64,000 nt of DNA from NCBI GenBank assembly GCA_001825665.1, contig MHXZ01000018.1:972-64971 (forward strand). Direction: 5' to 3'. Of the stretch, positions 32,400 through 58,073 are shown in pieces (position 1 is the first letter of the stretch; each line of letters starts with the position of its first letter). A model generated the notes under the pieces. It was not told the DNA's origin. It saw nothing but the letters and a program-made list of their open reading frames with translations, and ran no database searches. Both the position numbers and the translations under genes were made by a program. The DNA is from Planctomycetes bacterium GWF2_41_51 (GTDB lineage: Bacteria; Planctomycetota; Phycisphaerae; Sedimentisphaerales; UBA12454).

Positions 32400-33364
32400 A
32401 CGAAAAGGTATCTTTGATTTGTACAACATATAACTGTAAAGATGAATTAAATGCAGCGTTAAAAGTTTTTACTACTGAGAAAAACCTTGTCTTAGTTGAG
32501 GAAATTTCAATTGTTGATGGAGGATCAAAGGATGGGACATGGGAACTTTTGCAAAAATGGTCAAAAGAAATAGATAAAATTAAAGTTTGTCAAATTGTTG
32601 GTGCTAATATTTCGAAAGGTAGAAATGAAGCTATAAAACGAACTAAATCAAATATAATTGTGACATTTGATAGTGGAACAGAATACGGTGATAATTGGCT
32701 TAAATTTATATTAGAACCCCTTTTATCAAAAAAAACGGAAATAGCTAGCGGTCTTACGGTCTGTTGCGGAGATAGCATCTTTCAAAAATGTCTTGCTGCT
32801 TTAGGTGATAGACATCGTGCCAGTATAAAACCTTCTCACAGAGGAGTTGCTTATTACAGGTATGTATGGGAGGAGATAGGAGGTTATCCTGAGTATGTAC
32901 AAGCCGGCGAGGATACTTGGTTTAACACGCAATGCGAGAAAAAGGGTTATAAGCATGTTAATGTTTCCGAGGCAAAGAATTATTGGAAAGTTCGCAACTC
33001 ATGGAAAAAAGTTTTCAAAATGCAATATCGTAATATTAAGGGGCAGGTAATATTGGCTGAACCTTCAGGAATTGTCATTAATTTTGGAATAACTAGTGTA
33101 TATTTAGTAATAATAATATTATTATTACTTGGGTTTATATTTCCAGTTTTATTTTTGATGGCTGCAATTTTTAGCTTTATGTATTTCTTTAAAAGACTAT
33201 TTGGAAAAAGAAGATGGCGGTTTTTTGTTAATCCTTTGCATTTTATAGTTGGTCTTTATGTCTTAAATGGATGGGATATGGGAAACTGCATAGGAACAAT
33301 AGAAGGTTTGTTTATACTTATTCATACAAAATTTAAGAAAAAAATTTATGGAAACTCTTTCTAA
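32396..33364 (+). CDS. Glycosyltransferase family 2 with C-terminal TM segment
   Basis: SLICTTYNCKDEL...VDGGSKDGT and GED motifs. Confidence 0.7.
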   Translation: MNEKVSLICTTYNCKDELNAALKVFTTEKNLVLVEEISIVDGGSKDGTWELLQKWSKEIDKIKVCQIVGANISKGRNEAIKRTKSNIIVTFDSGTEYGDNWLKFILEPLLSKKTEIASGLTVCCGDSIFQKCLAALGDRHRASIKPSHRGVAYYRYVWEEIGGYPEYVQAGEDTWFNTQCEKKGYKHVNVSEAKNYWKVRNSWKKVFKMQYRNIKGQVILAEPSGIVINFGITSVYLVIIILLLLGFIFPVLFLMAAIFSFMYFFKRLFGKRRWRFFVNPLHFIVGLYVLNGWDMGNCIGTIEGLFILIHTKFKKKIYGNSF

Positions 33365-34886
33365 TCAAAATATCATTCAAAGCGATCAGCAGCAATTTAA
33401 GCCGAATTTGCGAATAAATTGGGTATTTTTATTTTTTTGTATCGCTGTATGTATTGTCTTAACTATAATAATTGATACAAGAAGCACTGCTGGTTCTCTC
33501 TTTATTGCCGCCAGATATTTTGTTTGTATTGTCAGTGTTTTATCCTTATTTATGCCGGTTCGATTTGGCGTACCGATAATTTTCTTAATTCTTGCAATAG
33601 GAGTGGATGCAACCCAATCAGTATATGAAAAATATGCAATGGGGGAAATTATTTCAGCAAGTTTGTGGCAGTTTCGATATGGTCCTTTTAATCCAAGTAT
33701 GTTTGTTGCATTTATTTTAGGTATTCATATCTTAAAAGTTCATTGTTTACAGCTTGATAAAATAGTGAAACGCGCATTGATTTGGTTTGTGACTGTTCCC
33801 ATAATAACAGGTTTTGTTTATGGTGGTATGACGTCTATAGCAAGCAGAGTAGAAATTTTACAAGATGTAAGATTTGCCATCTTATTAATGATGAGTATCA
33901 TATTATTCAGGGGATATCTAAAGAAATTTCCACAAATGATTGGTTTTATGCTGACTCTTTTTGTGGCATACTTTGTTGCAAGACATGCAGTTGATTTATT
34001 TTATTGGTTTACAGGTTTCGGTTCTGTTATGGGTGGAGCTACAAGAGTAAGTGTCGGTTCTACAAAAGGGACAATTAATATACTTTTGTTATTTACAATA
34101 GTATTATTTTTCCGTGAAAAAAGATTTATTCTTGGCTTTGCATTGGGCCTATGTTCAATTATTTTGCTTGTTGTTTATGCCGGCAGACTGCTATGGTTAA
34201 CCAGTGTATTAGGATGTATTCTACTTTTCATAGTTATAGGTGCCAAAAGATTTATAATAGGACTTCCTATAGTTATGATTTGCGGAATAATCGCTTTTAA
34301 AATACTTGGAACTTACGGGTATGAATCACTTGAATACGCATCGCAAAGAGCCGAATCTTTTAAAGGGGGTTCAGTTGGAAATTATCTTCAAAGGCTTGAT
34401 GGATTAAGATATGGCGAGCTTGTAAACGTATTTAATACCAATCTAAAGAGAGGTGCCGTTTTATGGGGGAGCGGTTACAGCAGTTATTATACAGATGATG
34501 CAGCCCCATTTCCTGCAACATTAATCGCAGCATTTGCGGATTACAGTGCTATGAGTGGTCTTTTTTATCAAACTCATGAATATTTTAGCCATATATATTT
34601 AAAACATGGACTTATCGGGCTATTTATAATATCCTCTCTATGGCTTACACCTGCATGGCGATGTTATAAAATGTTTGATAAAAATGCAAAAGGTTTGTTC
34701 TATTCTGTGCTTGCCTGCTTTATTGCGTTTTCTTTCCTTGCGATGATCCAATTTTATTGGACAGGGCAGGGGTTATTTATATGTGGTTTTATGATTGCAT
34801 CCCTGATAACCATATCTGAAATACTGGAAGAAAATCACACCAGCTTTGAGCCAGTCATCAGTCAGAAAGAGTTAATAGAAAGTTAA
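33348..34886 (+). CDS. O-antigen polymerase/ligase-like (Wzy-type) integral membrane protein
   Basis: More than 10 TM helices with a large loop, sitting next to wzx in a glycan locus. Confidence 0.55.
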   Translation: METLSNQNIIQSDQQQFKPNLRINWVFLFFCIAVCIVLTIIIDTRSTAGSLFIAARYFVCIVSVLSLFMPVRFGVPIIFLILAIGVDATQSVYEKYAMGEIISASLWQFRYGPFNPSMFVAFILGIHILKVHCLQLDKIVKRALIWFVTVPIITGFVYGGMTSIASRVEILQDVRFAILLMMSIILFRGYLKKFPQMIGFMLTLFVAYFVARHAVDLFYWFTGFGSVMGGATRVSVGSTKGTINILLLFTIVLFFREKRFILGFALGLCSIILLVVYAGRLLWLTSVLGCILLFIVIGAKRFIIGLPIVMICGIIAFKILGTYGYESLEYASQRAESFKGGSVGNYLQRLDGLRYGELVNVFNTNLKRGAVLWGSGYSSYYTDDAAPFPATLIAAFADYSAMSGLFYQTHEYFSHIYLKHGLIGLFIISSLWLTPAWRCYKMFDKNAKGLFYSVLACFIAFSFLAMIQFYWTGQGLFICGFMIASLITISEILEENHTSFEPVISQKELIES

Positions 34887-34887
34887 T

Positions 34888-36189
34888 ATGGCTCAAACAT
34901 TAATGGGCGTATCTATGTCAAGCAACCGGAAAAGACTCTTAAGCAATTTTATTTCATTAAGTGGGGTAAGAATTGCAGGTTTTATTTTTCCATTGATTAC
35001 TTTGCCCTATCTTGTGCGAGTATTAGGGCCTGAAAAGTTTGGGCTAATTGCGTTCGCACAGGGGCTTATTCAATATTTTGTGATAATTACAGATTATGGT
35101 TTTAATTTATCCGCAACAAGAGAAATCTCGATTAATAGAAATGATATCAAGAAAATATCTGAAATATTCTATTCCGTAATTCTGGTTAAACTTGTTTTGA
35201 CAATCATAAGCTTTGTTATTTTATCATTAATAGTATTTAGTTGGAGTAAATTCAGAATTGATTGGCAAATATATTTCCTAACATTTGGAGTCGTCGTTGG
35301 CCAAGTTATATTCCCTATATGGTTCTTTCAGGGGATGGAAAAGATGAAGTATATTGCTGGTCTTAATATTCTAACAAAATTTGTTTTTACAATAGCTGTT
35401 TTTGTTTTTATTCATAAGGAATCTGATTATCTCTGGATGCCGATTTTATATTCATTTGGATTTATTCTTTCAGGAGTATTGGGATTATGGTTTGCATTAT
35501 ATTCTTTTAAGATTATATTTGTGTTTCCATCCTATAATGAGATTGTACATCAACTTAAGGAAGGATGGCATATTTTTATTTCCACAGTAGCAATGAGTTT
35601 TTATACTACTAGCAACATTGTAATTCTCGGATTTTTCACAAACAATACTATAGTTGGTTATTATAGTGGAGGTGAAAAAATCGTCAGAGCAATACAATAT
35701 GGATTATTGTATCCATTATCTCAGACAATTTATCCGCATATTGGAAAACTTGCCCATGAATCCAAAGAAGCAGCCCTTGTTTTTGTTAGAAAAGTAATCG
35801 GACTCGTGGGAATACCAGTTTTATGTGTGTCTGTGGCGTTATTAGTATTTGCTCCTAGCATAAGTAATATAGTTTTAACAAGAAAGTTTGAAGAAAGTAT
35901 ACCTGTTATGTGTATTCTTGCACCCTCGATATTTGTAATTTTCTTAAATAATCTTTTTGGAATACAGATCATGTTAAATTTTGGATATCAGGCTTCTTTC
36001 CAAAAAATAGTTTTAATAGGAGGGGCAATTAATATTGTGTTAGTTATAATACTTTCGATCATGTTCCAGCATATAGGTGTTGCTATCGCAGGACTCATTA
36101 TGGAAACATATATTACCTGCCACGAGTTAGTTTTCCTTTATCACAAAGGAATAAAATTTAGTTTCAATTTTTCCAAACAGAGCATTTAA
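34888..36189 (+). CDS. wzx: Polysaccharide flippase (Wzx, MOP superfamily)
   Basis: 12 or more TM helices and the typical N-terminus LLSNFISLSGVRIAGFIFPLITLPYLVRVLGPEKFG. Confidence 0.8.
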   Translation: MAQTLMGVSMSSNRKRLLSNFISLSGVRIAGFIFPLITLPYLVRVLGPEKFGLIAFAQGLIQYFVIITDYGFNLSATREISINRNDIKKISEIFYSVILVKLVLTIISFVILSLIVFSWSKFRIDWQIYFLTFGVVVGQVIFPIWFFQGMEKMKYIAGLNILTKFVFTIAVFVFIHKESDYLWMPILYSFGFILSGVLGLWFALYSFKIIFVFPSYNEIVHQLKEGWHIFISTVAMSFYTTSNIVILGFFTNNTIVGYYSGGEKIVRAIQYGLLYPLSQTIYPHIGKLAHESKEAALVFVRKVIGLVGIPVLCVSVALLVFAPSISNIVLTRKFEESIPVMCILAPSIFVIFLNNLFGIQIMLNFGYQASFQKIVLIGGAINIVLVIILSIMFQHIGVAIAGLIMETYITCHELVFLYHKGIKFSFNFSKQSI

Positions 36190-36201: not shown

Positions 36202-38352
36202 ATGCAGTATATAAAAAATATATTAAAAAGGACAAAGTTATTTCCTTTTATAAAGTATTTCCATTGTCTAATGTCTGAAATTAAAAAAAACGATGATATA
36301 GCAATAGTACTCAAACAACATCCTTTCATGTATTCAAACACAAGTTCCAAAAAATCTATCTATTTAAGGAAGGCTATAGCATTTGAAAAGATGTTATCCA
36401 CAATGTATCCGAGTGTTAAGAAGGATGATTTACTAGCAGGAAGGCGAACAATATATAATTTCCCAATTTATTTAACAATAAATGAATATGATTTAGCGAA
36501 CATAGGCAATCTTACTCCGAACTATAATACAGTTCTAACCAAAGGATTTAAAGGAATAAAGCAAGATGCTATCTCGGCAATGAATGACAAAAACCTGAGT
36601 TCTGATAGTAAAGATTTTTTATCTTCTGTGGTAATGGTATGTGAAAGCGTAATAAAGTTTTCGAACAGATATAGTGAAAAGCTCTTGGAGATGTCTGAAA
36701 AATATGGCGATTCTCAGCCTTCTTTAAGGCAACTGGCACAAATATGTAAAAAAATTCCTGCAGAACCAGCTACTAATTTTTATCAAGCACTACAAAGCGT
36801 ATTTTTTACAAATATGTTAATATGGTCCGAGGAACATCATCTTATTGGTTTAGGACGTTTGGATCAATATTTATGGCCTTATTACCAAAATGATATTGCG
36901 AAAGGAATTTGCACAGCAGATGAAATGTATGAGCTATCTAAACATTTTTGGAAAAGACTCAACGAAGATTTTAGAGAGAAGAGCAATGTGCTTGCTGGAG
37001 ATACGGGTCAGGCAGTTATCCTTGGCGGATTAGAGAAATCCAGAGGGGAGGATGCCAGCAATGAATTGACTTATATGTTTTTGAAAATTGCGAAGGAACT
37101 AAAACAAGTAGATCCAAAAATAGTACTAAGAGTACATTCTAAAACGCCTGAAAAATTGTGGAAAGAATCTCTCGCACTCCTCAAGTTAGGTCTAGGCTAT
37201 CCTTTATATGCAAGTGACGATGTTATTATTCCATCATTGAAATCTTTTGGATATGACTCTGAAGATGCAATAGATTATGTGGTTTCAGCGTGTTGGGAAC
37301 CTTTGATTCCAGGCAAGTCTTTTGAATTAAATAATGTTTGTAGAATAAATTTTCTGCATTGTTTAGAATCTTCAGTTAATGATGGCAAGTCTTTATTAGA
37401 TAACAGCCAAATAGGTGTTTCTGGCGGATTTCTTAAAGAATGCAATAGTTTTGAAGATTTAATTAAAAATTTAAAATCGCAAATACACTTTTTTATAAGT
37501 CAATCAGTAGAAAGGGTAAATAATCTAAGATTTGTCCCGTCTCCTTTATTTTCTGCACTAACAGCAAATTGTATTGAAAAAGGCTTAGATATTTCTAAAG
37601 GCGGTGCAAAGTACAATAATTTTGGAATACTAAATTCAGGTTTTGTCAATATGGTTAATTCTTTGATCGCTATAAAGAAACTTGTATATGAAAATAACCA
37701 AATTAGTAAAATTGATTTGCTCAAATGTTTAAAAGATGATTTTGAAAACAATATGCAATTATGTTCATATATGAAAAATCGTATTCCCAAATTTGGTAAT
37801 GATATTGACGAAGTAGATAGCATCGCATCTGAGTTAGCAGATTTCTACGGTCAGGAATGTGCTAAAGAATCAAATTCATTAGGAGGAAGATACAAAGGCG
37901 GTCTTGGAAGTGCCGATGGGTATGTTACAGATGCAAAGAAAACAGCCGCTTCATGTGATGGACGTAAATTGGGGGAAATACTGACTGTTAATTTTTCGCC
38001 GGCAGCGGGAACGGTTCAGAATGGCTTAACTGCTGTAGTAAATTCTATTTCTAAAATCAATTTTAGAAAAGTATTCAATGGTTCTATTTTGGATTTAAAG
38101 CTGTCTCCTTCATTCTTTACCGAAGAGAAATATCTCGACAAACTTGTACTATTTCTCAAAGTAGCTATGCGCAAATGCGAGGAGATTCAGTTCAATGTAG
38201 TTAATTCACAAACGCTGAAAGATGCAAAAAACAATCCTGATCAATATCGAGATCTAATTGTAAGGGTTTGGGGTTTTAGTGCTTATTTTGTTGATTTACC
38301 TGAAGAATATCAGAATCATATAATTGAGAGATCTGAACATGATATCCAGTAA
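36202..38352 (+). CDS. Glycyl radical enzyme (PFL2/eliminase-like family)
   Basis: C-terminal glycyl-radical motif LIVRVWGFSAYFVDL, Cys-loop SACWEPLIPGKS (CxE type), and the conserved AVILGG and NFSPAAGT blocks. Confidence 0.85.
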   Translation: MQYIKNILKRTKLFPFIKYFHCLMSEIKKNDDIAIVLKQHPFMYSNTSSKKSIYLRKAIAFEKMLSTMYPSVKKDDLLAGRRTIYNFPIYLTINEYDLANIGNLTPNYNTVLTKGFKGIKQDAISAMNDKNLSSDSKDFLSSVVMVCESVIKFSNRYSEKLLEMSEKYGDSQPSLRQLAQICKKIPAEPATNFYQALQSVFFTNMLIWSEEHHLIGLGRLDQYLWPYYQNDIAKGICTADEMYELSKHFWKRLNEDFREKSNVLAGDTGQAVILGGLEKSRGEDASNELTYMFLKIAKELKQVDPKIVLRVHSKTPEKLWKESLALLKLGLGYPLYASDDVIIPSLKSFGYDSEDAIDYVVSACWEPLIPGKSFELNNVCRINFLHCLESSVNDGKSLLDNSQIGVSGGFLKECNSFEDLIKNLKSQIHFFISQSVERVNNLRFVPSPLFSALTANCIEKGLDISKGGAKYNNFGILNSGFVNMVNSLIAIKKLVYENNQISKIDLLKCLKDDFENNMQLCSYMKNRIPKFGNDIDEVDSIASELADFYGQECAKESNSLGGRYKGGLGSADGYVTDAKKTAASCDGRKLGEILTVNFSPAAGTVQNGLTAVVNSISKINFRKVFNGSILDLKLSPSFFTEEKYLDKLVLFLKVAMRKCEEIQFNVVNSQTLKDAKNNPDQYRDLIVRVWGFSAYFVDLPEEYQNHIIERSEHDIQ

Positions 38353-39253
38353 CTGTCTGATATTCGATATAAAAAGATTCGCGATATCTGATGGTCCGGA
38401 GATAAGAACAACCATTTTTTTTAAAGGATGCCCATTGAAATGTCCGTGGTGTCACAACCCCGAAGGTATTTCATTCAGACAGGAGTTTTTTTGGAGAAGA
38501 ACAAAATGTTCAGAATGCAATGAATGCATTCGTATCTGCCCGCATGGATATGATCCTAAAGATGTGAAACGATTAAATGAAAAATTTGAAGAATGCTTAA
38601 ATTGTAGAAAATGTGTTGATATCTGTCCTACCGGAGCAATTACTATAATCGGAAAAGAAATCGAATTGGCAGATCTAATTGAGTTGATAAGCAGAGATAT
38701 CGATTATTATGCGGATAGCGGAGGCGTGACGTTTTCAGGAGGAGAACCGCTTGCACATATGTCATATTTGCAGCGTGCATTAGAAGAATGTAAACGCATC
38801 GGAGTCAACACTTGTATTGAAACTTCCGGATTTTGTTCTAAAGAGGATTTATTGTTAATTATAGACTATGTAGATTTTTTTATGTTCGATCTAAAATTAG
38901 CAAATAAAGAAGAAAGTCAAAGAGTCATAGGGGCAAATATTGATAAAATTGTTGAAAATTTAAATATAATCACGAGCGAGAAAAAATGTGTTTTGAGACT
39001 GCCAATGATTAGAGATCTTACGGATACTAAAGAGAATATAGAACTCTTACTTGCTATATTGCGGCAAATTCCGAATAAAAAGAATTTGTCAAGAGTGGAA
39101 TTGCTGCCATATCATAAATTAGGTGAAAGCAAGTATATATGCTTAGGTAAAGAAACATTGAAAGTTTTTGAACCTTCCACAGAATCGAATCTAAATTGTA
39201 TTAAAGAAAAGATATCATCACTTAATTATAATGTCAGTATTGAGAGATTTTAA
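38339..39253 (+). CDS. Glycyl-radical enzyme activating protein (radical SAM)
   Basis: CPLKCPWCHNPE (CxxxCxxC) plus two ferredoxin-type clusters, CSECNECIRICP and CLNCRKCVDICP. Overlaps the GRE stop. Confidence 0.85.
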   Translation: MISSNCLIFDIKRFAISDGPEIRTTIFFKGCPLKCPWCHNPEGISFRQEFFWRRTKCSECNECIRICPHGYDPKDVKRLNEKFEECLNCRKCVDICPTGAITIIGKEIELADLIELISRDIDYYADSGGVTFSGGEPLAHMSYLQRALEECKRIGVNTCIETSGFCSKEDLLLIIDYVDFFMFDLKLANKEESQRVIGANIDKIVENLNIITSEKKCVLRLPMIRDLTDTKENIELLLAILRQIPNKKNLSRVELLPYHKLGESKYICLGKETLKVFEPSTESNLNCIKEKISSLNYNVSIERF

Positions 39254-39255
39254 TA

Positions 39256-40410
39256 GTGAAATATGATTTTATAATAGTTGGAGCTGGATTTGCAGGATGT
39301 GTTCTTGCCGAACGGATAGCCAATGATATGGGCAAGAAAGTGCTTGTCATTGAAAAGCGTAAGCATTGGGGCGGTAACTGCTATGATATGATAGATAGCC
39401 ATGGAATTTTGATTCACAATTATGGCCCCCATATTTTTCATACTATAAAAAAGAATGTATGGAATTATCTAACAGGGTTTACGGAGTGGTATTATTATCA
39501 ACACAAAGTTTTAGGTTATATAGACGGCCAGTATGTGCCAATCCCTTTCAACCTGAATTCGCTGCATCAATCATTTCCTAAGAATACAGCACAAGAATTG
39601 GAAGAAAAACTTGTTAAAAAATTTGGCATGGGTAACAAGATACCAATATTGCAGTTGAAGGATGCAGGTGGGGAACTCAAGTTTTTGGCAGATTATATTT
39701 ACGAGAAAGTTTTTTTAAATTATACGATGAAGCAGTGGGATTGTAAACCAAACGAAATTGATGAATCGGTGACCGGCAGGGTTCCGGTGCATATTTCTAG
39801 AGACGATCGATATTTTCAAGATATATATCAGGGCATGCCGTCAAATGGGTACAGTAATATCTTTGAAAAAATGCTTTCTCACGACAATATACATTTGCTT
39901 CTAAACACTAATGCTTCCGACATCATAGAGATAAGGGATAGAGATGTTTATATGATGGGTGAAAAATTTGGCGGAGTATTTATTTACACCGGTCCAATCG
40001 ACCATTTATTCAAGTATAAATATGGTAAATTACCATATCGTTCCCTAAAGTTAGATTTCGAGTATTTACCACAACAGCAATATCAGCCTGTTGGGACGGT
40101 CAATTATCCTAATGATTATGATTTTACGCGAATTACTGAATTTAAACATTTGACCGGGCAGAAAGTTGAAGGAACAACTATTTTAAAAGAATATTCACAG
40201 CCTTATGATCCCGAAATAAAAGGGAGAGATATTCCTTACTATATAATTAGTAAGCCTGAGAATTTAGAGTTATATAAAAAATATAAAAATGAAGTGGATA
40301 GATTAAATAAGACAATCCTTGTTGGGCGGCTTGCAGAATATAAATATTATAATATGGATGACATTATTGCTCGTTCGCTGGAGATATTTGAGAATGATAT
40401 CGAAAAATGA
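39256..40410 (+). CDS. glf: UDP-galactopyranose mutase
   Basis: YDFIIVGAGFAGCVLAERIA FAD motif and the NYPNDYDFTRITEFKHLTGQ block. GTG start. Confidence 0.85.
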   Translation: MKYDFIIVGAGFAGCVLAERIANDMGKKVLVIEKRKHWGGNCYDMIDSHGILIHNYGPHIFHTIKKNVWNYLTGFTEWYYYQHKVLGYIDGQYVPIPFNLNSLHQSFPKNTAQELEEKLVKKFGMGNKIPILQLKDAGGELKFLADYIYEKVFLNYTMKQWDCKPNEIDESVTGRVPVHISRDDRYFQDIYQGMPSNGYSNIFEKMLSHDNIHLLLNTNASDIIEIRDRDVYMMGEKFGGVFIYTGPIDHLFKYKYGKLPYRSLKLDFEYLPQQQYQPVGTVNYPNDYDFTRITEFKHLTGQKVEGTTILKEYSQPYDPEIKGRDIPYYIISKPENLELYKKYKNEVDRLNKTILVGRLAEYKYYNMDDIIARSLEIFENDIEK

Positions 40411-41365
40411 TACCATAGCAGACAATGTGTGGGCAATAGTTGTGACTTTTAACAGAAAAGAATTGCTCTTGAAATGTCTTCAAGCTATCAGGGAGCAAAC
40501 ATTGGCTGTTGATAAGATATTAATTATGGATAACGCATCTACAGACAGAACTCCTGAAGCATTACTGGAAAACGGAATCATAAATGAATTGCCCCCTTTA
40601 GTTCTAAATGAACCATGGGAAAAAGAATTTATAACAAAACCGAACGGTAACGGTAATGTTGTGAAACTATTTTATATAAGAATGCATAAGAATACTGGTG
40701 GTTCTGGTGGCTTTCATCAAGGGATTAAAATTGCTTATGAAAACGGGGCAAAGCGGATGTGGCTGATGGATGATGATGGTCTGCCTGAAAAAAATTGTCT
40801 TGCAGAATTGATAAAAATATCTTGTAAATGGATCGATTATATTGCACCAAATCTATTTAATGAGAAAGGAGAAAGTCACTTTAAGGGATTATTAGCGACT
40901 ACTAAAAATGATGTAATTAGTTTTAAAGGCGGTCCTTTTAATGGAATCATTATAAGCCGAGATATTGTGAAACAAATTGGTTACCCTATGAAAAATTTCT
41001 TTTTGTGGGGTGATGAATATGAATATACAAATCGAATTTATGAAGCTGGTTTTGTGATGATCACAGTCAAAGATGCAAAGTTTTTTCATAAATCAACTAA
41101 AGTAGATTATAAAACATGTAAACGCGGTTTTTTTATCGGAAGGAACAGTATTTATCGCAGCAGGCTCTTTAAGGGAGTATTTATGCGTAAATCGCTTTTT
41201 AAAATAGATATGTATTACGCCGTCTTTATGGCTTTTTGGCGTTTCTTTTTCTGCGGCAATATTTCACAAAGTATTCAAGTATTCAAAGGATGTCTCCATG
41301 GATTTTTTGATGATTTAACAGAACATCAAAAAGAATGTTGTTGGTGGGGAGTTGAACAATCATAA
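40394..41365 (+). CDS. Glycosyltransferase family 2 (galactofuranosyl/rhamnosyl-transferase-like)
   Basis: WAIVVTFNRKELLLKCLQAI..MDNASTD and WLMDDD motifs. The ATG at 40394 is preferred. Confidence 0.7.
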   Translation: MISKNDTIADNVWAIVVTFNRKELLLKCLQAIREQTLAVDKILIMDNASTDRTPEALLENGIINELPPLVLNEPWEKEFITKPNGNGNVVKLFYIRMHKNTGGSGGFHQGIKIAYENGAKRMWLMDDDGLPEKNCLAELIKISCKWIDYIAPNLFNEKGESHFKGLLATTKNDVISFKGGPFNGIIISRDIVKQIGYPMKNFFLWGDEYEYTNRIYEAGFVMITVKDAKFFHKSTKVDYKTCKRGFFIGRNSIYRSRLFKGVFMRKSLFKIDMYYAVFMAFWRFFFCGNISQSIQVFKGCLHGFFDDLTEHQKECCWWGVEQS

Positions 41366-44951: not shown

Positions 44952-45559
44952 TAAGTAATTTAACAAAAAGTTATGCTCCACAAGCGGCTGTTTTACATAT
45001 CCAAGGAATTTCCACAGGATTTATAAGTTCTTTAGGGAAGAGATTTGTAACGACATTGTACGAAGCTATTGCGGAGGATAAAAATAGTTTTGGATTTGTT
45101 GCTGTTGAAGATGATAAAGTATTAGGCTTTGTTGCTTTTTCGACCAATTTGTCAAAATTATACAAATATGTAATATTAAAAAAAGGTTTTAAGTTTGTTT
45201 TTGTACTTGCTAAAAAAATGCTATCTTTACAGGTAATCAATAAAATATTGCATAATATTTTTTATCCTTCAAAAATGGCGAAGATGGATTTGCCGGATGC
45301 CGAACTCCTTTCAATAGTAGTTGCAACTGAAGGACGTGGAAAAGGAATAGCGAAACAGCTTGTTGATGCAGGTTTTGAAGAATGTAGAAAACGCGGCATT
45401 GATAAAGTTAAAGTATTGGTAGCAGCTGATAATGAAATTGCAAACAAGTTATACCAGAAATGTGGATTTGAAAAATTTAAACAAATTGATAGTCACGGTA
45501 TTTTAAGCAATATTTATGTCATGGATTTGATAAAAGGCGATCACAATGGGAAAAAATAA
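44948..45559 (+). CDS. GNAT-family N-acetyltransferase
   Basis: VATEGRGKGIAKQL acetyl-CoA motif. ATGA overlap with the upstream GT. Confidence 0.7.
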   Translation: MISNLTKSYAPQAAVLHIQGISTGFISSLGKRFVTTLYEAIAEDKNSFGFVAVEDDKVLGFVAFSTNLSKLYKYVILKKGFKFVFVLAKKMLSLQVINKILHNIFYPSKMAKMDLPDAELLSIVVATEGRGKGIAKQLVDAGFEECRKRGIDKVKVLVAADNEIANKLYQKCGFEKFKQIDSHGILSNIYVMDLIKGDHNGKK

Positions 45560-46568
45560 GAAGGTTGGTATTGCTGTAATAATTGTGATTATTTTCATAA
45601 TCTTAATATTTAATGCCAACTCCAAAAGTAATCTTATCCGTCAGATGCAAGGTCCTATCGAAGGAACTGAAAGTGTTTTGACCAGCGGCAATAACCTTAT
45701 TGTTATTTCAAAAAATAATCATACTTTTACCTGGCAATGGGATAATCTCAGAAAATGGCCGATGGTCGCAAAGCCTAATGCTGCTTTTATAACGCCTGTA
45801 TTTGATAATAAAATTGTTTATAATCTTTCTAATTCAGGAAAGCTAATATTAACCGACCTCAAAGCAGAAAAAGAAATTTCAAGTTTATCGCTGCCTTATG
45901 GCTCAGAACCTAAACGGGTTAAAACTTCTTCAAACCATAATTTTGGCATAGTTTCTTTTATTGAAAATGATGTTTTAAAATTAGCTCTGTTTGATTCAGC
46001 TTTAAAAGATTTATCTATTGTCTTCCAAAAAGATACAAATGAAGAAAAATTCACATTGAATGATTTTGATATTACCGACGGCGCTGATTTGATTGCCGGC
46101 ACAGGCAAAAAAGATAAGGCATGGATTTTTGTAAAAGATATTAAAAATGACAAAATAGTATTTGAAAAAACTTTTGATGAGTATAATCAATTTACAATTG
46201 TAGAGTTTTCGCCGGATGGTAAAACCATTTATGTGGCTGAAAAAGTAAGATTCATTCTTGCTTTGGACTCACAAACCGGAGCAGTTGTGCGTATTTATGA
46301 AATGCCTGAATATCAAACTCCTGCTCATCAAAAGCAAAATATCTCATGTCTCGCAATAAGCCCGGATAACAAAGTTTTAGCCGTAGATACAGAGCCAGCC
46401 TGTACAATTTGGTTTTGGGACATCGCCTCTGGTAAAAAAATTGATGAAATACATGCCAGCGACCTAACCGTTTCAGATATCGCTTTCTCACCAGATTCAA
46501 AATATCTTGCAACAGGCTGTTTGGTCAGTCCCGAAATCAAAATCTGGAAAGTTCCTCAGTTGAAATAA
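45546..46568 (+). CDS. Membrane-anchored WD40/beta-propeller repeat protein
   Basis: N-terminal TM helix and repeated xxSPDGKxLAxx blades ([33 protein letters not shown]). Confidence 0.6.
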
Positions 46569-46576
46569 CAAATCAA

Positions 46577-48205
46577 ATGCCTCAAAAAACAGCAATAATC
46601 ATTGGTGCAGGACCAGCAGGTCTAACTGCCGCTTTCGAGCTGCTCGATAAGACAGATATTAAGCCGATAATATTTGAACAAACCGGCGATATTGGCGGAA
46701 TCTCAAAAACCGTCAACTATAAAGGCAATCGCATCGATATTGGCGGTCATCGGTTCTTCTCTAAATCAGACAAGGTGATGAATTTCTGGCTCAATTTAAT
46801 GCCGATTCAAACATCACCAGCTAAAGACGATATTCTTCTTGACAGAAATTTGCCTCAAGTTGAATATAATAAAACGCTCGAAGCCGACCCCCAAAAAGAT
46901 GATAAAGTTATGCTTATTCGTGAAAGGCTTTCGCGAATTTTATTCTTGAGGAAGTTTTTTGATTATCCGATATCTCTTACTCTCGATACCGTTTTTAATT
47001 TAGGTGTTTTCAGAACAATAAAAATCACTCTGAGTTATTTAAAGGCCCGAGCGTTTCGAATTAAGCATGAAAAATCGCTGGAGGATTTTCTAATTAATCG
47101 TTTCGGCAGGGAATTGTACAAAACATTTTTCAAGGATTACACCGAAAAAGTCTGGGGAATAACCTGCGACAAGATTAATCCGCAATGGGGTGCGCAAAGG
47201 ATCAAAGGCCTTTCAATCACACGAGCTATAATACATGCAATAAAAGCGATTATTTATAGGGATAAATCTATAGGTCAAAAAGAAGTTGAAACAAGCCTTA
47301 TAAGTCAATTCTTATACCCTAAATTCGGCCCCGGTCAGTTGTGGGAAATTCTCGCTGATATTATTAAGTCAAAAGGCGGACAGATATTTCTGAATAACAA
47401 AGTCGTTGGACTGGAACAACAAAGTAATAAAATTGCATCAGTAACAGTCTGTGATGAAAAAACAAAAGAATTGAAAAAATATCCGGCCGACTTCGTTTTT
47501 TCAACAATGCCTGTAAAAGAATTAATTGAATCTATCGGACAGAATGTTCCTCAGGATGTAAAAGAAATTGCGGCAGGTTTATGTTACCGTGATTTTGTAA
47601 CAGTAGGGCTTTTAGTTAAAAAACTCAAAATTAAAAATAATACCAATATAAAAACATTGAATAATATTGTGCCTGATAATTGGATTTACATTCAGGAAAA
47701 AGATGTAAAAATCGGTAGACTTCAGATTTTCAATAACTGGAGTCCGTATATGGTCGCTGATGAAAATAATGTCTGGCTCGGTCTCGAATATTTTTGTAAT
47801 GAAGGTGATGAACTCTGGAATATGTCCGATGAGCAATTTGGAAGATTTGCAATTTCTGAGCTTGAAAAAATCGGAATTATTGATTCTGCTGATGTTCTCG
47901 ATAATGTGGTTATAAGAGTTCCAAAGACCTATCCCGCGTATTTTGGCAGTTATGACAGATTTGATGTTGTAAGGAATTATACAGATAAAATAAGCAATCT
48001 TTTCTTAGTCGGCAGAAACGGAATGCACCGCTATAATAATCAGGACCATTCGATGCTTACCGCAATGACCGCCGTCGAAAATATTGTCAAAGGCGTGGAA
48101 AGCAAAGATAATATCTGGCAGGTCAATGCTGAAGAAGATTACCATGAAACAAAGATGACCTCGGTTGAAAATCTTACGGATGCTTATACAGCCGAAAGAA
48201 AATAA
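46577..48205 (+). CDS. FAD/NAD(P)-dependent oxidoreductase (amine-oxidase/desaturase-like)
   Basis: [16 protein letters not shown] dinucleotide motif. Confidence 0.65.
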
Positions 48206-50680: not shown

Positions 50681-51694
50681 TTATTTCCCTGATAAATCTT
50701 TCTCTCTTACCCAGACTTCTGCATCATATCTAAGCATTGCGAGATTGTTTTCAAAGCCGTCGAATTCGATTGATGGTTTTTTACCGATTAGTTGTGCAAG
50801 TATCCACTTCGGAAAATCCGCTCCAGCCTTTATGCTCAATGGTGCTCCTCCGCCGAACCGTGGATTGATTTCTATGAATTTTATTTTGTTGTCTTTTGTA
50901 AGTATTAGCTGTACGGTTATTACGCCCGGACCTGCTCCAAGTTTTTCGACGAGCAATGCGGTCTGTTGCATTATCTGGGAATTTTTTATAATTTTGCTTT
51001 TGCTTACTTCTCCCGCTCTTGTCTCAATTCTAATTCGCGGAACTACACATCGAACTTTCAAGTTGAAATCCACGAAAACATCACAGGTAAACTCTTGACC
51101 TGCGATAAATTCCTGAACGATGCAGTTCGGGATTTTCTTGCTATAAAAAGAAAGTTCCTGACGATTTTTTACGATTGCGTTTCCTCTGCTTGCATATCCG
51201 TCCCATGGTTTTAAAAAGAGAGGATATTTTAATTTTGGATTGCGTAAAGCCTGTTGTGCATTCTGTGTTAAGGGAGTCTCAAAACCATTTTGAATCAGGA
51301 ACTGGTATGTTTCGCGTTTATCCTGACAAATGTTTACAACATCGGGTTTGGAAACCAGCACTGTGCATCCTGCCGCTGAGAATTTATCTTTATTTTCAGC
51401 AAGAATATGCAAATCCAAATCCACCGTTGGCACGATAAGATTTACTTTGTTTTGTTTTACTATTTCCAGCAATTCTTTTATATAATGTTGGTGGTTGACA
51501 GATTTGACGATAAATTTTCCATCGCACAAATGAAGGGCCGAGCTTAATACAGACCTGTCTGTACCGAAAATCTTACAATCGAGTTTAAGCTGTTTTGCTG
51601 CTCTTCTAAAACTATTTAAAAGAGATACTCTTCTGCCTATACATGTGAAAAGTATATTAAAATTCTTGCTTTTTATTTTTTTCTGACTTACCAT
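50681..51694 (-). CDS. ATP-grasp domain protein
   Basis: Pre-ATP-grasp and ATP-grasp pattern: LFLKPWDGYASRG, VQEFIAGQEFTCDV, EINPRFGGG. Confidence 0.7.
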   Translation of the reverse strand: MVSQKKIKSKNFNILFTCIGRRVSLLNSFRRAAKQLKLDCKIFGTDRSVLSSALHLCDGKFIVKSVNHQHYIKELLEIVKQNKVNLIVPTVDLDLHILAENKDKFSAAGCTVLVSKPDVVNICQDKRETYQFLIQNGFETPLTQNAQQALRNPKLKYPLFLKPWDGYASRGNAIVKNRQELSFYSKKIPNCIVQEFIAGQEFTCDVFVDFNLKVRCVVPRIRIETRAGEVSKSKIIKNSQIMQQTALLVEKLGAGPGVITVQLILTKDNKIKFIEINPRFGGGAPLSIKAGADFPKWILAQLIGKKPSIEFDGFENNLAMLRYDAEVWVREKDLSGK

Positions 51695-51800
51695 AACTTA
51701 TAGTACCCAAAAAACTTAGTTAAGTTTAACCCATTATAGGACTATTGTCCATATATTTGATTTCAGTTGTATATATCGACCATTTTTGAGAGATTTTTAA

Positions 51801-52490
51801 GTGATAAAATGTATCGCATTTGATATGGATGACACCCTCTACGATGAGATAGACTATTATAAAAGTGGTTTCCAAGAGGTATCCCGCACGATTGCGTCCG
51901 ATTTTGGCCTAAATGCCTTGGATGTGTTTGACACCCTTTGGACTATTTTTAATGGCGGTAACCATAATGCGGCCTTTGACGCAGCGGCAAAAAAATTCGG
52001 AATAGTTTTCGATGATAATTATACCGCCAAACTCGTTGATATCTTTCGTAATCATAAACCTGATATTGCTCTTCCTTCCGACAGCAGACAGGTTTTAACG
52101 GATTTGAAAAAGCACTATAAGCTCGGATTGGTAACTGATGGCTGGCTTCCCGCTCAGGAATATAAGGTAAAAGCATTGGGGCTTGATGAATTTCTGGATT
52201 GCATTATATACACCGAAAAACTTGGTGCAGAACACTGGAAACCTTCGCCCAAAGGTTTTGAAATTTTATTATCTGATGTTGGAGTATCTGCTTCTGAAAG
52301 CATTTATGTTGGTGATAATCTTAAAAAAGATTTCATAGCGCCAAATGAAATGGGCTTTAAAACAATTTGGATTTCACGTAAAAATAAAATCCATTTGGAA
52401 CCCGCTCCTTCACCCCAGGCAGTTCCGCAATTTGAAATTCAGTCTATAACGGAATTGATTGATTTATTGAGAAAAATTAATGCTGTATAA
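51801..52490 (+). CDS. HAD-superfamily hydrolase
   Basis: FDMDDTLY motif I, LVTDG motif II and VGDNLKKD motif III/IV. GTG start. Confidence 0.7.
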   Translation: MIKCIAFDMDDTLYDEIDYYKSGFQEVSRTIASDFGLNALDVFDTLWTIFNGGNHNAAFDAAAKKFGIVFDDNYTAKLVDIFRNHKPDIALPSDSRQVLTDLKKHYKLGLVTDGWLPAQEYKVKALGLDEFLDCIIYTEKLGAEHWKPSPKGFEILLSDVGVSASESIYVGDNLKKDFIAPNEMGFKTIWISRKNKIHLEPAPSPQAVPQFEIQSITELIDLLRKINAV

Positions 52491-53085
52491 ATATTTAAAA
52501 AGTTTGTTTGATTTTATGTTCTCTTTAATTGCAATTCTAATATTGTTGCCGGTATTCGTCTGTTTAATTATTTTGATTAAAGTAACCGGCAGGGGACCGG
52601 CTATTTTTAAACAAATTCGTGCCGGAAAAAATGGAGAGCCTTTTACCTTTTATAAATTCCGCACCATGAAAACCGATGTCGAGCCGTTTGGCCCAAGCCC
52701 CAAAACCCGCCAAGACCCAAGATTGACAAAAGTTGGTATTTTCCTCAGAAAATACTCTTTTGACGAACTTCCTCAGCTTTTTAACGTATTAAAGGGCAAT
52801 ATGAGTCTTGTTGGACCAAGGCCTTTGTACATTTCGCAAATAGCTGAGTGGAACCAACAGCAGAAAAAAAGACTTCTTGTAAAGCCCGGTATTACAGGCC
52901 TCGCCCAAATTAATGGCCGAGGCGAACTTACCATCGAAGAGAAGCTTGCGTTTGACGTTGAATATGTAGAAAAAATTTCGTTTATGCTCGATGCTAAAAT
53001 CGTTTTCTTTACGATTTTGCATGTTCTGACAGGTAAAAGCATTTACGAAAAAAGGTATTCTAAGACGCAGGAAACCAGAGGATAA
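52480..53085 (+). CDS. Monotopic phosphoglycosyl transferase (PglC/WbaP C-terminal type bacterial sugar transferase)
   Basis: KFRTM, DELPQLFNVLKGNMSLVGPRP motifs. Confidence 0.85.
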   Translation: MLYKYLKSLFDFMFSLIAILILLPVFVCLIILIKVTGRGPAIFKQIRAGKNGEPFTFYKFRTMKTDVEPFGPSPKTRQDPRLTKVGIFLRKYSFDELPQLFNVLKGNMSLVGPRPLYISQIAEWNQQQKKRLLVKPGITGLAQINGRGELTIEEKLAFDVEYVEKISFMLDAKIVFFTILHVLTGKSIYEKRYSKTQETRG

Positions 53086-53117
53086 TTATTTTTTGTCATT
53101 TGATTGAAGGAAGTACA

Positions 53118-54263
53118 ATGAAGCCAAAGATACTATCTAAACTGCGGTATGTTACAAAACTTGACGACATTGCGGGCCTTTCCGACTCTGACCGCATCCA
53201 GACAAAAAAAGTTGCGGAAAAATATCCTTTCATGGCCAATGATTATTATCTTTCACTTATCGATTGGAATGACCCAAAAGACCCCATTCGAAGAGTAATA
53301 ATTCCCTGTCCAGACGAACTTCAGGAGTGGGGCAGATTAGACCCTTCCGATGAGCATAAATATACGATTTTGCCGGGTCTGGAACATAAATATAATACTA
53401 CGGCTCTTTTGCTTGTAAGCAGCAATTGCGGCGGTATCTGCCGTTATTGTTTCAGGAAAAGGGTCTTCCTTGATTCCCAACCGGATTATTTGCAAGATGT
53501 TGATGCTGCAATGGGGTATATTTCCGCACATAAGGAAATCACAAACGTTCTGCTAACCGGCGGCGACCCATTGACTTTGCCCACAGAGCGTCTCGAAGAG
53601 ATTATCAGCAAACTCAGACAAATTGAGCATGTGCATATTATAAGGCTCGGAACGCGTATGCCGGTTTATTATCCATACAGGATAACTAAAGATAAAAAAT
53701 TCCTGCAGATGCTTGAAAAATATACTACCGCCCGCAATAAAATATATGTGATGACGCATTTTGTTCACTCTAACGAACTGACAGATGTTGCCGTTGATGC
53801 CTGTAATATGATTCAAAAGACCGGCGTCAGAATGACAAATCAGGTTCCGCTTTTACGCGGAATTAATGATGACCCCGAGGTGCTTGCTAAATTATTCTCG
53901 GATCTTTCTTTCTGTGGTATAGTCCCGTATTATATTTTCCAGTGCAGGCCGTCCAGCGGCAACAAGGCATATACAGTACCCATTGAGGAAGGTTATAATA
54001 TTGTCGAACGTGCAAAAGCGAAAGTTTCAGGTCTTGCAAAACGCGCAAGATTTGTTATGAGTCATTCAACCGGGAAAATTGAAATTATAGGTAAAACCGA
54101 TTCTAATGTTTATATGAAATATCACAGGGCGGCAAATGATGACGACAGCGGTAAATTTATGATTCTTAAAAGCAATCCGAAAGCTTGCTGGTTCGACGAT
54201 TACGAAGAAATTGCCGCCGATTATCCTCTCAGTAAACCTTACAGGCTTTACGGCCCCGAATAA
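53118..54263 (+). CDS. KamA-family radical SAM aminomutase (lysine 2,3-aminomutase-like)
   Basis: CGGICRYCFRKR cluster motif, TGGDPL, and overall KamA-like layout. Confidence 0.75.
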   Translation: MKPKILSKLRYVTKLDDIAGLSDSDRIQTKKVAEKYPFMANDYYLSLIDWNDPKDPIRRVIIPCPDELQEWGRLDPSDEHKYTILPGLEHKYNTTALLLVSSNCGGICRYCFRKRVFLDSQPDYLQDVDAAMGYISAHKEITNVLLTGGDPLTLPTERLEEIISKLRQIEHVHIIRLGTRMPVYYPYRITKDKKFLQMLEKYTTARNKIYVMTHFVHSNELTDVAVDACNMIQKTGVRMTNQVPLLRGINDDPEVLAKLFSDLSFCGIVPYYIFQCRPSSGNKAYTVPIEEGYNIVERAKAKVSGLAKRARFVMSHSTGKIEIIGKTDSNVYMKYHRAANDDDSGKFMILKSNPKACWFDDYEEIAADYPLSKPYRLYGPE

Positions 54264-56759: not shown

Positions 56760-58073
56760 ATGAATATGAAAAAAATATTGTGCGTTTTTGTTTTAATGGT
56801 TTCTTTTTCGGCTTTATGTTTCTCTCAAACTCCGCGTCCTGCCGCTGCCAAACCTTCAGTAACAATGCAGTTGCCCCAGCCTCAAACCAACAGCCGCTTT
56901 TCTCTTGAACAGGCGATAGAAAACCGTCGAAGCATACGCCAGTTTACCGAAGAACCTTTGACAATCGCTCAACTCGGCCAGATATGCTGGGCTGCGCAGG
57001 GCATCACAGAACCGAACAAGGGGATGCGAACCGCTCCCTCAGCCGGTGCTATATACCCAATCGAACTATACGTTGTCCTCCCGGATGGCTTGTATCTTTA
57101 CCGGCCCGCGACTCACGATTTAAGCAAACTCATTACCGGCGATTTGCGCAAGTCTGTTTCAAATGCCTCTTTCAATCAGAGATTTGTCCAGACCGCTCCC
57201 TGCACTTTCATTATCGCAGGCTCAATTAAAAAAGTCGAAGCCAGGTACCGCAACCGTGGTGCGAAATTCACGTACATCGAAGCCGGTCATATCGCGCAGA
57301 ATATTCAGCTCCAGTCCACCGTTCTCGGCCTCGGCTCCGTTCCCATCGGCGTTATAGATGAAAAAACAATCGCACAGATTTGCAAGCTGCCCCAGGGCCT
57401 TGAAGTTTTATATATTGTCCCCGTTGGAAACCCGACCGAAAAACCAGTTCTAACTCCTGCCGCCTCTTCCGCACCAGCTCCCGTAGTGGTTTATCCCTCT
57501 GCTCAGGCTGATTTACGCGCAAAGCGTGTCGCCATCATTATCCCAAGCAGGTATTTCAAAGACAGCGACTATTATGCCGTTGAGCAGGCTCTTACAAGAG
57601 AAGGGGTTCAGAAAGTTATCGCTGGTACAGTTTTAAACGAAGTAAGAGGTATCGAAGTAAGAGGTACTCGAAAAAATATTCTAAAACCAACCGTACTTGT
57701 ACGTGATTTAAAGATAGACGAATATGATGCTTTCGTTTTCATTGGCGGTACTGCCATAGGCGGAAATTTTAATAACCAGGATTTAATCAATCTGGCACGT
57801 TCAGCTTTTCAGGCTGATAAAATCCTCGCTGCTATTTCTGATGCTCCTGTTATTTTTGCTTATGCCGATATCGTCAGAGGGAAAAATGTAACCGCTGCAT
57901 TATCTGAACGTCACAGGCTTGTAAATGCAGGCGCCAATTGGCAGAAATCCCTGCTCGTAACAGATGGCAATTTGATTACCGCTGGAGATTCTGCTTCGGT
58001 GGTCTCAGATATAGCTTCACGTTTCGCAGTCGAGCTTATCGCCCAGCTTCGAAAACAGCGAACAGCAAATTAA
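56760..58073 (+). CDS. Exported fusion: SagB-type nitroreductase-like domain plus DJ-1/PfpI-like domain
   Basis: Signal peptide. RRSIRQF...APSAGAIYPIELYV (SagB/nitroreductase-like). The C-terminal class-I glutamine-amidotransferase-like fold has LAAISDAP at the nucleophile elbow. Confidence 0.55.
   Translation: MNMKKILCVFVLMVSFSALCFSQTPRPAAAKPSVTMQLPQPQTNSRFSLEQAIENRRSIRQFTEEPLTIAQLGQICWAAQGITEPNKGMRTAPSAGAIYPIELYVVLPDGLYLYRPATHDLSKLITGDLRKSVSNASFNQRFVQTAPCTFIIAGSIKKVEARYRNRGAKFTYIEAGHIAQNIQLQSTVLGLGSVPIGVIDEKTIAQICKLPQGLEVLYIVPVGNPTEKPVLTPAASSAPAPVVVYPSAQADLRAKRVAIIIPSRYFKDSDYYAVEQALTREGVQKVIAGTVLNEVRGIEVRGTRKNILKPTVLVRDLKIDEYDAFVFIGGTAIGGNFNNQDLINLARSAFQADKILAAISDAPVIFAYADIVRGKNVTAALSERHRLVNAGANWQKSLLVTDGNLITAGDSASVVSDIASRFAVELIAQLRKQRTAN

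Follow-up and report, generated by a model that had tools for sequence, protein, structure and literature searches.

The glycyl radical enzymes (GREs) characterised so far, as reviewed in June 2026, include six C-O eliminases, CutC, three C-S lyases and three isomerases; the PFL-like members are all bacterial and all belong to catabolism or central metabolism, and whole clades of the superfamily are without annotation (PMC13450708). A Cys-x-Glu (CxE) motif is kept by all eliminases and isomerases, and every characterised GRE that carries it is either a C-O, C-N or C-S eliminase or an isomerase (PMC13450708). The only characterised GREs that act on sugar rings, YbiW and PflD, convert 1,5-anhydroglucitol-6-phosphate and 1,5-anhydromannitol-6-phosphate to 1-deoxyfructose-6-phosphate by radical C-O cleavage, with the Glu of CxE hydrogen-bonded to a ring hydroxyl (PMC13450708). 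Here we describe a GRE and its putative activating enzyme from a 64,000-nucleotide stretch of Planctomycetes bacterium GWF2_41_51, the metagenome-assembled genome of an anaerobic planctomycete of the Phycisphaerales (contig MHXZ01000018.1, positions 972 to 64,971; the window). As an initial annotation of the window had pointed out, the two genes are packed between a wzx flippase gene and the UDP-galactopyranose mutase gene glf within a polysaccharide biosynthesis locus. From the sequence comparisons presented below we consider it highly probable that they encode a functional pair dedicated to glycan biosynthesis.

The window GRE, labelled by NCBI as a 'hypothetical protein', matches the Pfam families PFL-like (PF02901, E 9.9e-128) and Gly_radical (PF01228, E 5.1e-22). 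In a HMMER alignment to the glycerol dehydratase of Clostridium butyricum (1R8W) its Cys364, Glu366 and Gly691 pair with Cys433, Glu435 and Gly763, and the motif RVWGFSAYF pairs with RVAGYS. Therefore, the glycyl radical C-terminus and the CxE-type loop (C364-W-E366) that the initial annotation had picked out do fall on the catalytic residues of a solved enzyme. The radical Gly and the catalytic Cys are furthermore invariant in all 83 family sequences (83/83). An AlphaFold model built with 33 homologues (pLDDT 90.2, pTM 0.91) matches every eliminase or isomerase GRE in the PDB with TM-scores of 0.85-0.90 at no more than 31% identity. The predicted catalytic apparatus of the eliminase and isomerase classes, namely the thiyl Cys, the Glu at +2 and the glycyl radical loop, is thus intact. 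The protein had also been described as shorter than typical GREs, and indeed it is. Gene callers place its start at Met24 (nucleotide 36271), which gives 693 residues, and at 693-716 residues it is about 70-120 residues shorter than the solved eliminases and isomerases (764-837 residues), with some 60 residues missing at the N-terminus.

The best sequence and structure matches are the B12-independent glycerol dehydratase of C. butyricum (1R8W/1R9D) and the propanediol dehydratase of Roseburia inulinivorans (5I2A; 9RCO), with a phmmer E of 5e-111, Foldseek TM-scores of 0.88-0.89 and 28-31% identity (for 1R8W, TM 0.88 at 31%). These enzymes share with the window GRE the ten-stranded barrel, the Cys-x-Glu loop, the C-terminal glycyl radical domain and a PFL2-type activase. 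That they are the nearest solved structures would suit an alternative in which an ordinary catabolic GRE of the diol, glycerol or choline type was inserted into the locus by chance or persists there as a decaying passenger. However, none of the NCBIfam GRE models reaches its cutoff with this protein. With the PFL2/glycerol dehydratase subfamily model TIGR01774 the score is 463.6 bits (cutoff 678.2), and the equivalogs fall well short: CutC 333 against 1050, HypD 342 against 1100, the HpsG-type model 381 against 1000, the HpfG-type model 366 against 1000, and PRK09983, for the PflD-type isomerase, 362 against 1109. By these profiles the window GRE falls outside every characterised GRE function.

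The active site points in the same direction. We scored residue conservation over 51 sequences of the clade found with glycan genes (the glycan clade, defined below), with positions given in glycerol dehydratase numbering. Every residue that binds or protonates the diol in glycerol and propanediol dehydratase has given way to another, and these substitutions are kept in the clade: the general acid His164 is Asn, Ser282 is Leu, Ser284 is Gly, His446/Asp447 are Asn/Asn, and Tyr339 is Gly within a GDTGQ loop that is shortened by a five-residue deletion. Val434 and Ala762 have both become Trp, the latter being a signature of the family in the glycyl radical motif. Nearly all of these replacements are invariant across the 51 sequences, the exception being position 640, where Tyr is replaced by Gly in the window and by Ser in the other members. 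The C-W-E-P of the Cys loop is likewise invariant (51/51), as are Asp336 and Gly339 of the GDTGQ loop, in which Thr337 is found in 49/51. The resulting clade signature consists of IGNLT, GDTGQ, CWEP, a Q/L-N-N triad past the Cys loop (ELNN in the window) and RVWGF. Bulky Tyr and His side chains have been lost from the pocket and Asn, Asp, Thr, Ser, Gln and Trp gained, so that it reads as a larger, polar site of the kind that might hold a sugar. The initial expectation of eliminase-class chemistry from the CxE motif therefore stands insofar as the motif is kept, but the examples it drew on, glycerol and propanediol dehydratase, do not carry over to the pocket. With all diol-binding residues replaced and TIGR01774 under its cutoff, we rejected identity with either dehydratase. 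Epimerase and C-C lyase activities are also unlikely, since the loop holds one Cys, with Ala at the position of the second Cys of PFL, and the eliminase Glu is kept.

The downstream open reading frame (ORF) was taken from the outset for a radical S-adenosylmethionine (SAM) activase of the PFL2 class, and our analysis bears this out. It exceeds the cutoff of TIGR02494 (296 bits against 174), has the CX3CX2C motif of the family (CPLKCPWC, residues 36-43) and two ferredoxin-type CX2CX2CX3C motifs (residues 62-72 and 91-101), and matches the Fer4 family over residues 59-108 in Pfam. The putative activase thus fits the PFL2-class GRE activases with auxiliary clusters. The two ORFs overlap at 38324-38352 as first reported, although the likelier start of the activase is the ATG at 38339, which gives 304 residues and a 14-nucleotide overlap with the GRE stop. 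The activase adjoins the GRE in 77 of 84 loci. In some metagenome-assembled genomes (MAGs) it is broken into two or three short ORFs (L007:10075-10995, L024 and L056), and in L024 glf is broken as well; this is either decay of the cassette or an assembly or frameshift error. Such split genes could be cited in favour of a decaying passenger, but in the window the ORFs are intact and all catalytic motifs are present.

To place the GRE among its relatives we scanned one genome per species, 185,579 species genomes altogether, for the motif VWGF[SC][AT]YF and found the family in 289. The closest database relatives share 35-44% identity with the window GRE and are mostly unnamed or labelled 'formate C-acetyltransferase'. 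Neighbourhoods were extracted for 80 loci out of the 289 relatives, with ORFs called and neighbours labelled using the window proteins as seeds, and seven further relatives came from metagenome look-ups with precomputed Pfam neighbourhoods. In a neighbor-joining tree rooted on Escherichia coli YbiW, with PflD and glycerol dehydratase also sampled, all RVWGF sequences group apart from these three enzymes as a monophyletic family (100/100 bootstraps). The loci with glycan genes form a single clade (100/100 without the window), of which the window GRE is the basal member (95/100). This glycan clade spans Clostridia, Bacilli, Lachnospiraceae, Breznakiella (Spirochaetota), Bipolaricaulota and, within the Methanobacteriales, Methanobacterium, Methanobrevibacter and Methanothermobacter. 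Cultured carriers include Breznakiella homolactica RmG30, [Clostridium] aerotolerans DSM 5434 and strains of Methanobacterium and Methanobrevibacter.

The genes around these relatives are those of glycan assembly. Restricting the count to loci flanked by 5 kb or more on each side, and to markers within 10 kb, we found wzx in 25 of the 28 loci of the core clade, glf in 21, a DUF4422 gene in 9, and either a mutase or DUF4422 in 24. DUF4422 corresponds to GT111, whose sole characterised member is the UDP-galactofuranose transferase domain of WbbM (PMC12269835). In the Lachnospiraceae subclade (12 loci) the corresponding counts are 0, 1, 6 and 7; a GlfT-like glycosyltransferase (GT) of family GT2 is present in 7/12, and at least one of these markers in 12/12. 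All four counts are zero for the six loci of the sister clades. Fisher's test of core against sister clades gives p ~2e-4, a value that is indicative only, as the loci are not independent. The wzx gene lies directly 5' of the GRE in 31-33 of 84 loci, and the usual order is wzx-GRE-activase-glf, with a GT2 gene after glf or before wzx. This order is seen in the window, in the archaeal contig L005 and in L007, L022, L067, L093 and L094; for L005, L007, L093 and L094 it comes, with GT2 following glf, from the independent metagenome look-ups. Three loci that lack a classical glf (L009, L036 and L095) carry a homologue of the eukaryote-type UDP-galactopyranose mutase (UGM) beside the GRE cassette, the protein of L009 matching Trypanosoma cruzi UGM with an E of 2e-32. 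E. coli WbbI was considered as another carrier of DUF4422, but a Pfam scan of that protein gave no match, and the connection to Galf is drawn from WbbM instead.

A Pfam scan of the 123 nearest neighbours outside the cassette returned 45 GT2, 10 DUF4422, 6 GT1, 5 acyltransferases, 4 short-chain dehydrogenase/reductases (SDRs) and 3 Wzy_C proteins, and no microcompartment shell, aldehyde dehydrogenase, transporter or other catabolic gene. The clade therefore sits in glycan-assembly loci and not in the microcompartment or catabolic operons that the initial annotation had set as the alternative, and the biosynthetic context differs from the fermentative or microcompartment-linked one of glycerol and propanediol dehydratase. 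These observations bear most directly on chance insertion. GC content drops to 0.32-0.36 over 30-47 kb of the window, against 0.39-0.45 in the flanks, which is typical of an exchangeable core and fits horizontal acquisition of a region that includes the GRE cassette; a central locus that looks acquired in this way would also suit an accidental insertion. Nevertheless, the gene order repeats across several bacterial phyla and the Methanobacteriales, in dozens of species altogether, and the catabolic genes that an ordinary diol dehydratase might bring along are missing nearby. Together with the replaced pocket and the missed equivalog cutoffs, this makes a chance insertion or decaying passenger very improbable. 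We read the cassette of wzx, GRE, activase, glf and a galactofuranosyltransferase-like GT as both conserved and mobile.

The sister clades of the RVWGF family, from Oscillospiraceae, Actinomycetota/Planctomycetales, Bathyarchaeia and Aerophobetes, provide a useful contrast. They share with the glycan clade the C-W-E sequence (in most), a GD(T/N)G loop and RVWGF or RVWGW, yet differ from it at pocket positions 282, 284, 445, 446, 640 and 642. Their neighbours include an AraC regulator, a sugar-type ABC binding protein and permease, a PfkB kinase, a PTE-family hydrolase and a cyclase, and no wzx, glf or GT gene was found among them. They are likely to be catabolic GREs, whose substrate might be a free sugar or a derivative of one, and may hint at the ancestral substrate. 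In these sister-clade loci (L004, L019, L021, L023, L045, L046, L074 and L082) an undecaprenyl-diphosphatase gene (BacA) was also noted nearby.

The genes that specifically accompany the GRE cassette are those for galactofuranose (Galf). Of the sugar pathways named in the initial annotation, UDP-Galf is conserved across loci, while GDP-fucose and uronic acid genes are not. Window Glf exceeds the cutoff of TIGR00031 (446 bits against 303.75) and is 37% identical to E. coli Glf over 375 residues, and homologues of the GT2 that follows it in the window also come after glf in L005, L007, L067, L093 and L094. On this evidence we lean slightly towards a Galf-related substrate. The window Wzx is moreover unusually well conserved, being related over its full length to RfbX of E. 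coli K-12 (L092:7338-8585; 32% identity, E 9e-75), whose gene directly abuts glf in the O16 cassette rfbX(wzx)-glf-wbbH-wbbI for a Galf-containing repeat unit. No GRE or activase is present in the O16 cassette, so that the cassette of the anaerobes resembles an ancient wzx-glf module that has taken up the GRE and activase genes between its two members.

A mechanism can be outlined by modelling the radical steps on the chemistry of the GRE family (PMC13450708). Judging from its family, the activase would use SAM and a reduced [4Fe-4S] cluster to set the radical on Gly691, from where it would move to Cys364. The Cys364 thiyl would then take a hydrogen atom from a hydroxyl-bearing carbon of the furanose made by the adjacent mutase, most likely, given the gene context, UDP-Galf or a Galf residue on the lipid-linked repeat unit. 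Glu366 would deprotonate the hydroxyl, the ketyl radical would expel the vicinal C-O substituent, and Cys364 would return the hydrogen. The likeliest target would be the exocyclic C5-C6 diol of Galf, because its R-CHOH-CH2OH arrangement is also that of glycerol, 1,2-propanediol and dihydroxypropanesulfonate, on which GRE diol dehydratases act; dehydration would yield either a 5-deoxy-6-aldehydo or a 6-deoxy-5-keto hexofuranose, which the neighbouring GT would transfer before Wzx flips the unit. The C5 oxygen is the ring oxygen in the pyranose and is free as a hydroxyl only in the furanose, which would explain the tight coupling to glf, and dehydration would render the unfavourable ring contraction irreversible and so pull the mutase equilibrium. 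While the GRE probably makes a modified sugar that is as yet unseen, dehydration of the exocyclic diol is a tentative assignment that may well prove wrong. The explanation as a whole, in which a GRE and its activase were recruited to a surface-glycan cassette for Cys/Glu radical C-O cleavage on Galf, is the best that we can offer and falls a little short of being probable.

Several observations weigh against this explanation. The loci are related by descent, and counts therefore overstate their independence. Four of the 28 core loci, including that of the isolate [Clostridium] aerotolerans (L087), have no mutase or GT111 gene within 10 kb, and 5/12 Lachnospiraceae loci have neither, the GlfT-like GT2 being their lone marker. 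The exceptions among the core loci favour a view in which the GRE does serve glycan biosynthesis but acts on something other than Galf, such as another nucleoside diphosphate (NDP)-sugar, a CDP-polyol (CDP-glycerol or CDP-ribitol, which offer vicinal diols) or the precursor of a non-sugar substituent, with glf merely a frequent passenger of the same wzx family. The wzx-glf adjacency of E. coli O16, where there is no GRE, speaks for this view, as do the surroundings of the GRE in L009, with an NTP-transferase gene immediately before it and genes for SDR, UGDH, RmlC-like and RmlD-like proteins after it, and a cytidylyltransferase-like gene and LicD in Lachnospiraceae loci. On the other hand, the loci have no further sugar-nucleotide pathway in common, glf, the eukaryote-type mutase and GT111 are three independent Galf markers that track the GRE across domains, and the minimal archaeal locus L005 consists of wzx, GRE, activase, glf and GTs only. 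A non-Galf substrate is for these reasons the less likely option, but one to which we give appreciable weight.

The remaining objections concern the chemistry of the proposed Galf dehydration. The general acid of glycerol dehydratase, His164, is Asn in the GRE, and protonation of the leaving hydroxyl would fall to another acid, possibly Asp267 in the GDTGQ loop. We know of no 5-deoxy-hexofuranose or 5-keto-6-deoxy-galactofuranose from any polysaccharide. Finally, among the 123 nearest neighbours no reductase or aminotransferase for an aldehyde or ketone product is consistently linked (the 4 SDRs notwithstanding), and a reactive aldehyde or ketone would consequently enter the glycan unprocessed. 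The missing reductase fits a redox-neutral reaction that gives a stable product, as would be the case if the GRE were an isomerase that opens a furanose or pyranose at a C-O bond by radical chemistry and closes the ring anew, giving an isomeric sugar without net loss of water. YbiW and PflD, which share CxE and act on sugar rings, would be the precedents, and the GRE model matches the isomerase structures 8ID7, 8ID0 and 8YJO with TM-scores of 0.85-0.88. However, identity to YbiW and PflD is only 26-27%, the equivalog score is less than half its cutoff, and a His kept in both enzymes is Asn in the GRE. They are also catabolic, serving 'anhydroglycolysis' from PTS/aldolase operons, and ring C-O cleavage beside the anomeric centre would be expected to destroy an activated donor. 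An isomerase is accordingly improbable in our judgement.

Described routes to deoxy-hexofuranoses are a pathway precedent for Galf dehydration. As in the window, the glycan locus codes for a pyranose/furanose mutase, which is FADH2-dependent and provides an uncommon furanosyl donor, but there an NAD-dependent 4,6-dehydratase deoxygenates the pyranose, the mutase acts last, and no radical enzyme takes part (PMC12369002). Our literature search for deoxy- and keto-hexofuranoses found mutase-last pathways only. The coupling of a radical enzyme to the mutase in the window suggests a chemistry that is possible only past ring contraction. Radical removal of a hydroxyl beside a hydroxyl or amine is itself familiar in sugar biosynthesis from the radical-SAM dehydratases AprD4 and DesII. 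Unlike GREs, these enzymes use the 5'-deoxyadenosyl radical directly in each turnover and store no protein radical.

Positions of the features discussed; those without a locus label are in window coordinates.
Feature	Position	Strand	Size or residues	Remarks
Polysaccharide biosynthesis operon	22115-49533	+	~27 kb	Co-directional; holds the GRE cassette
Putative Wzy-type polymerase	33348-34886	+	512 aa	~11 hydrophobic segments; assigned by topology and position
Wzx flippase	34888-36189	+		Polysacc_synt, E 7.6e-59; directly upstream of GRE
GRE ORF	36202-38352	+	716 aa	Pfam PFL-like and Gly_radical; part of the polysaccharide operon
GDTGQ loop	36997-37011	+		Family-specific; stands in for the GGYPMYQ loop (Tyr339) of glycerol dehydratase
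Cys loop SACWEP	37285-37302	+	residues 362-367	Cys364 and Glu366
Glycyl radical motif RVWGFSAYF	38263-38289	+	residues 688-696	Gly691
GRE-activating radical-SAM enzyme	38324-39253	+	309 aa	TIGR02494
Activase CX3CX2C	38429-38452	+		CPLKCPWC
Activase first CX2CX2CX3C	38507-38539	+		Ferredoxin-type
Activase second CX2CX2CX3C	38594-38626	+		Ferredoxin-type
UDP-galactopyranose mutase glf	39256-40410	+		TIGR00031; begins 3 nt past the activase stop
GT2 glycosyltransferase	40319-41365	+		Best NCBIfam match galactofuranosyltransferase GlfT1 (NF050113, E 4.4e-24, under cutoff)
WD40 beta-propeller gene	45546-46568	+		In the glycan operon
Second mutase candidate, flavoprotein	46577-48205	+	542 aa	Homologue of eukaryote-type UDP-galactopyranose mutase
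ATP-grasp ligase	50681-51694			Opposite strand to the next three genes
HAD hydrolase	51801-52490
WbaP-like sugar transferase	52480-53085
KamA-family radical-SAM aminomutase	53100-54263			TIGR00238, 240 bits (cutoff 199)
Nitroreductase and DJ-1/PfpI fusion	56760-58073	+	437 aa	Shortly downstream of the glycan locus
Eukaryote-type mutase relative	L009:3387-4685			Homologue of the 46577-48205 flavoprotein
Eukaryote-type mutase relative	L036:13906-15204			Homologue of the 46577-48205 flavoprotein
Eukaryote-type mutase relative	L095:4249-5697			Homologue of the 46577-48205 flavoprotein
Rossmann-like ORF	L051:9354-9803		~140 aa	Upstream of a Lachnospiraceae GRE

The operon that surrounds the cassette contains the predicted genes by which a Wzx/Wzy-dependent polysaccharide locus is recognised: a flippase, a polymerase candidate, an initiating transferase, GTs and nucleotide-sugar genes. 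The polymerase candidate had no match in a Pfam scan, and the candidates for the initiating transferase are a Bac_transf protein and a WecA-like GT4. The sugar-precursor genes comprise SDR epimerases/dehydratases, two NDP-sugar dehydrogenases, a DegT aminotransferase, gmd (GDP-mannose dehydratase), an fcl-like gene, resembling that of GDP-fucose synthase, and wecB; gmd, the fcl-like gene and the two NDP-sugar dehydrogenases lie upstream of the GRE pair. The operon also encodes GT2 and GT4 transferases, a GNAT protein and a PMT_2-like protein. The flavoprotein further downstream matches Aspergillus fumigatus UGM (E 1.7e-11, phmmer against the PDB) and is placed by NCBIfam under PRK07208 'hypothetical protein' (879 bits), so that with classical glf the window has two mutase candidates. 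Between this flavoprotein and the GNAT acetyltransferase lies the WD40 beta-propeller gene.

Past the end of the operon, the KamA-family aminomutase gene adjoins the genes for a WbaP-like sugar transferase and a HAD hydrolase, with the ATP-grasp ligase gene on the other strand; these genes (50681-54263) could form a module for decorating the same glycan with a beta-amino acid. A nitroreductase and DJ-1/PfpI fusion is encoded a little further on. In the Lachnospiraceae loci, an ORF of about 140 residues directly upstream of the GRE was considered as a small subunit or split N-terminus of the enzyme and rejected, being a Rossmann-like domain that recurs fused to GT2s. Homologues of this ORF occur in L036, L048, L053, L055, L059, L065 and L077, and the domain, which has no Pfam match, forms the C-terminus of many GT2 proteins of these loci.

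The initial annotation knew of no comparable role for a GRE, and the literature agrees: the words polysaccharide, glycan, UDP, furanose and capsule are nowhere mentioned in the June-2026 review (PMC13450708), and our full-text literature searches turned up no GRE with a part in making glycans. The radical machinery of the pair is familiar, whereas its predicted role, which is biosynthetic, linked to a glycan cassette and present in archaea, is new, and the active-site signature is distinct. In its most specific form our proposal is that the clade represents the first anabolic GRE, a dehydratase for the exocyclic diol of UDP-Galf or lipid-linked Galf that would yield an unseen deoxy-aldehydo or deoxy-keto hexofuranose, and in that form we consider it possible but rather unlikely.

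A GRE clade resident in glycan cassettes would give the superfamily a biosynthetic role, and hundreds of proteins that at present go under 'formate C-acetyltransferase' or 'hypothetical' can be annotated by means of the signature motifs. Such a clade also leads one to expect, on the cell surface of anaerobes and methanogens from gut and rumen, either a new monosaccharide or a new way of modifying a sugar. If the proposal is true, strict anaerobes ranging from Clostridia of the gut to methanogens of rumen and gut would build the sugar into their surface glycans, and an archaeal PFL-like GRE would be assigned a function for the first time. It would also be a sugar whose synthesis needs the absence of oxygen, such that some surface antigens would be made only under anoxia.

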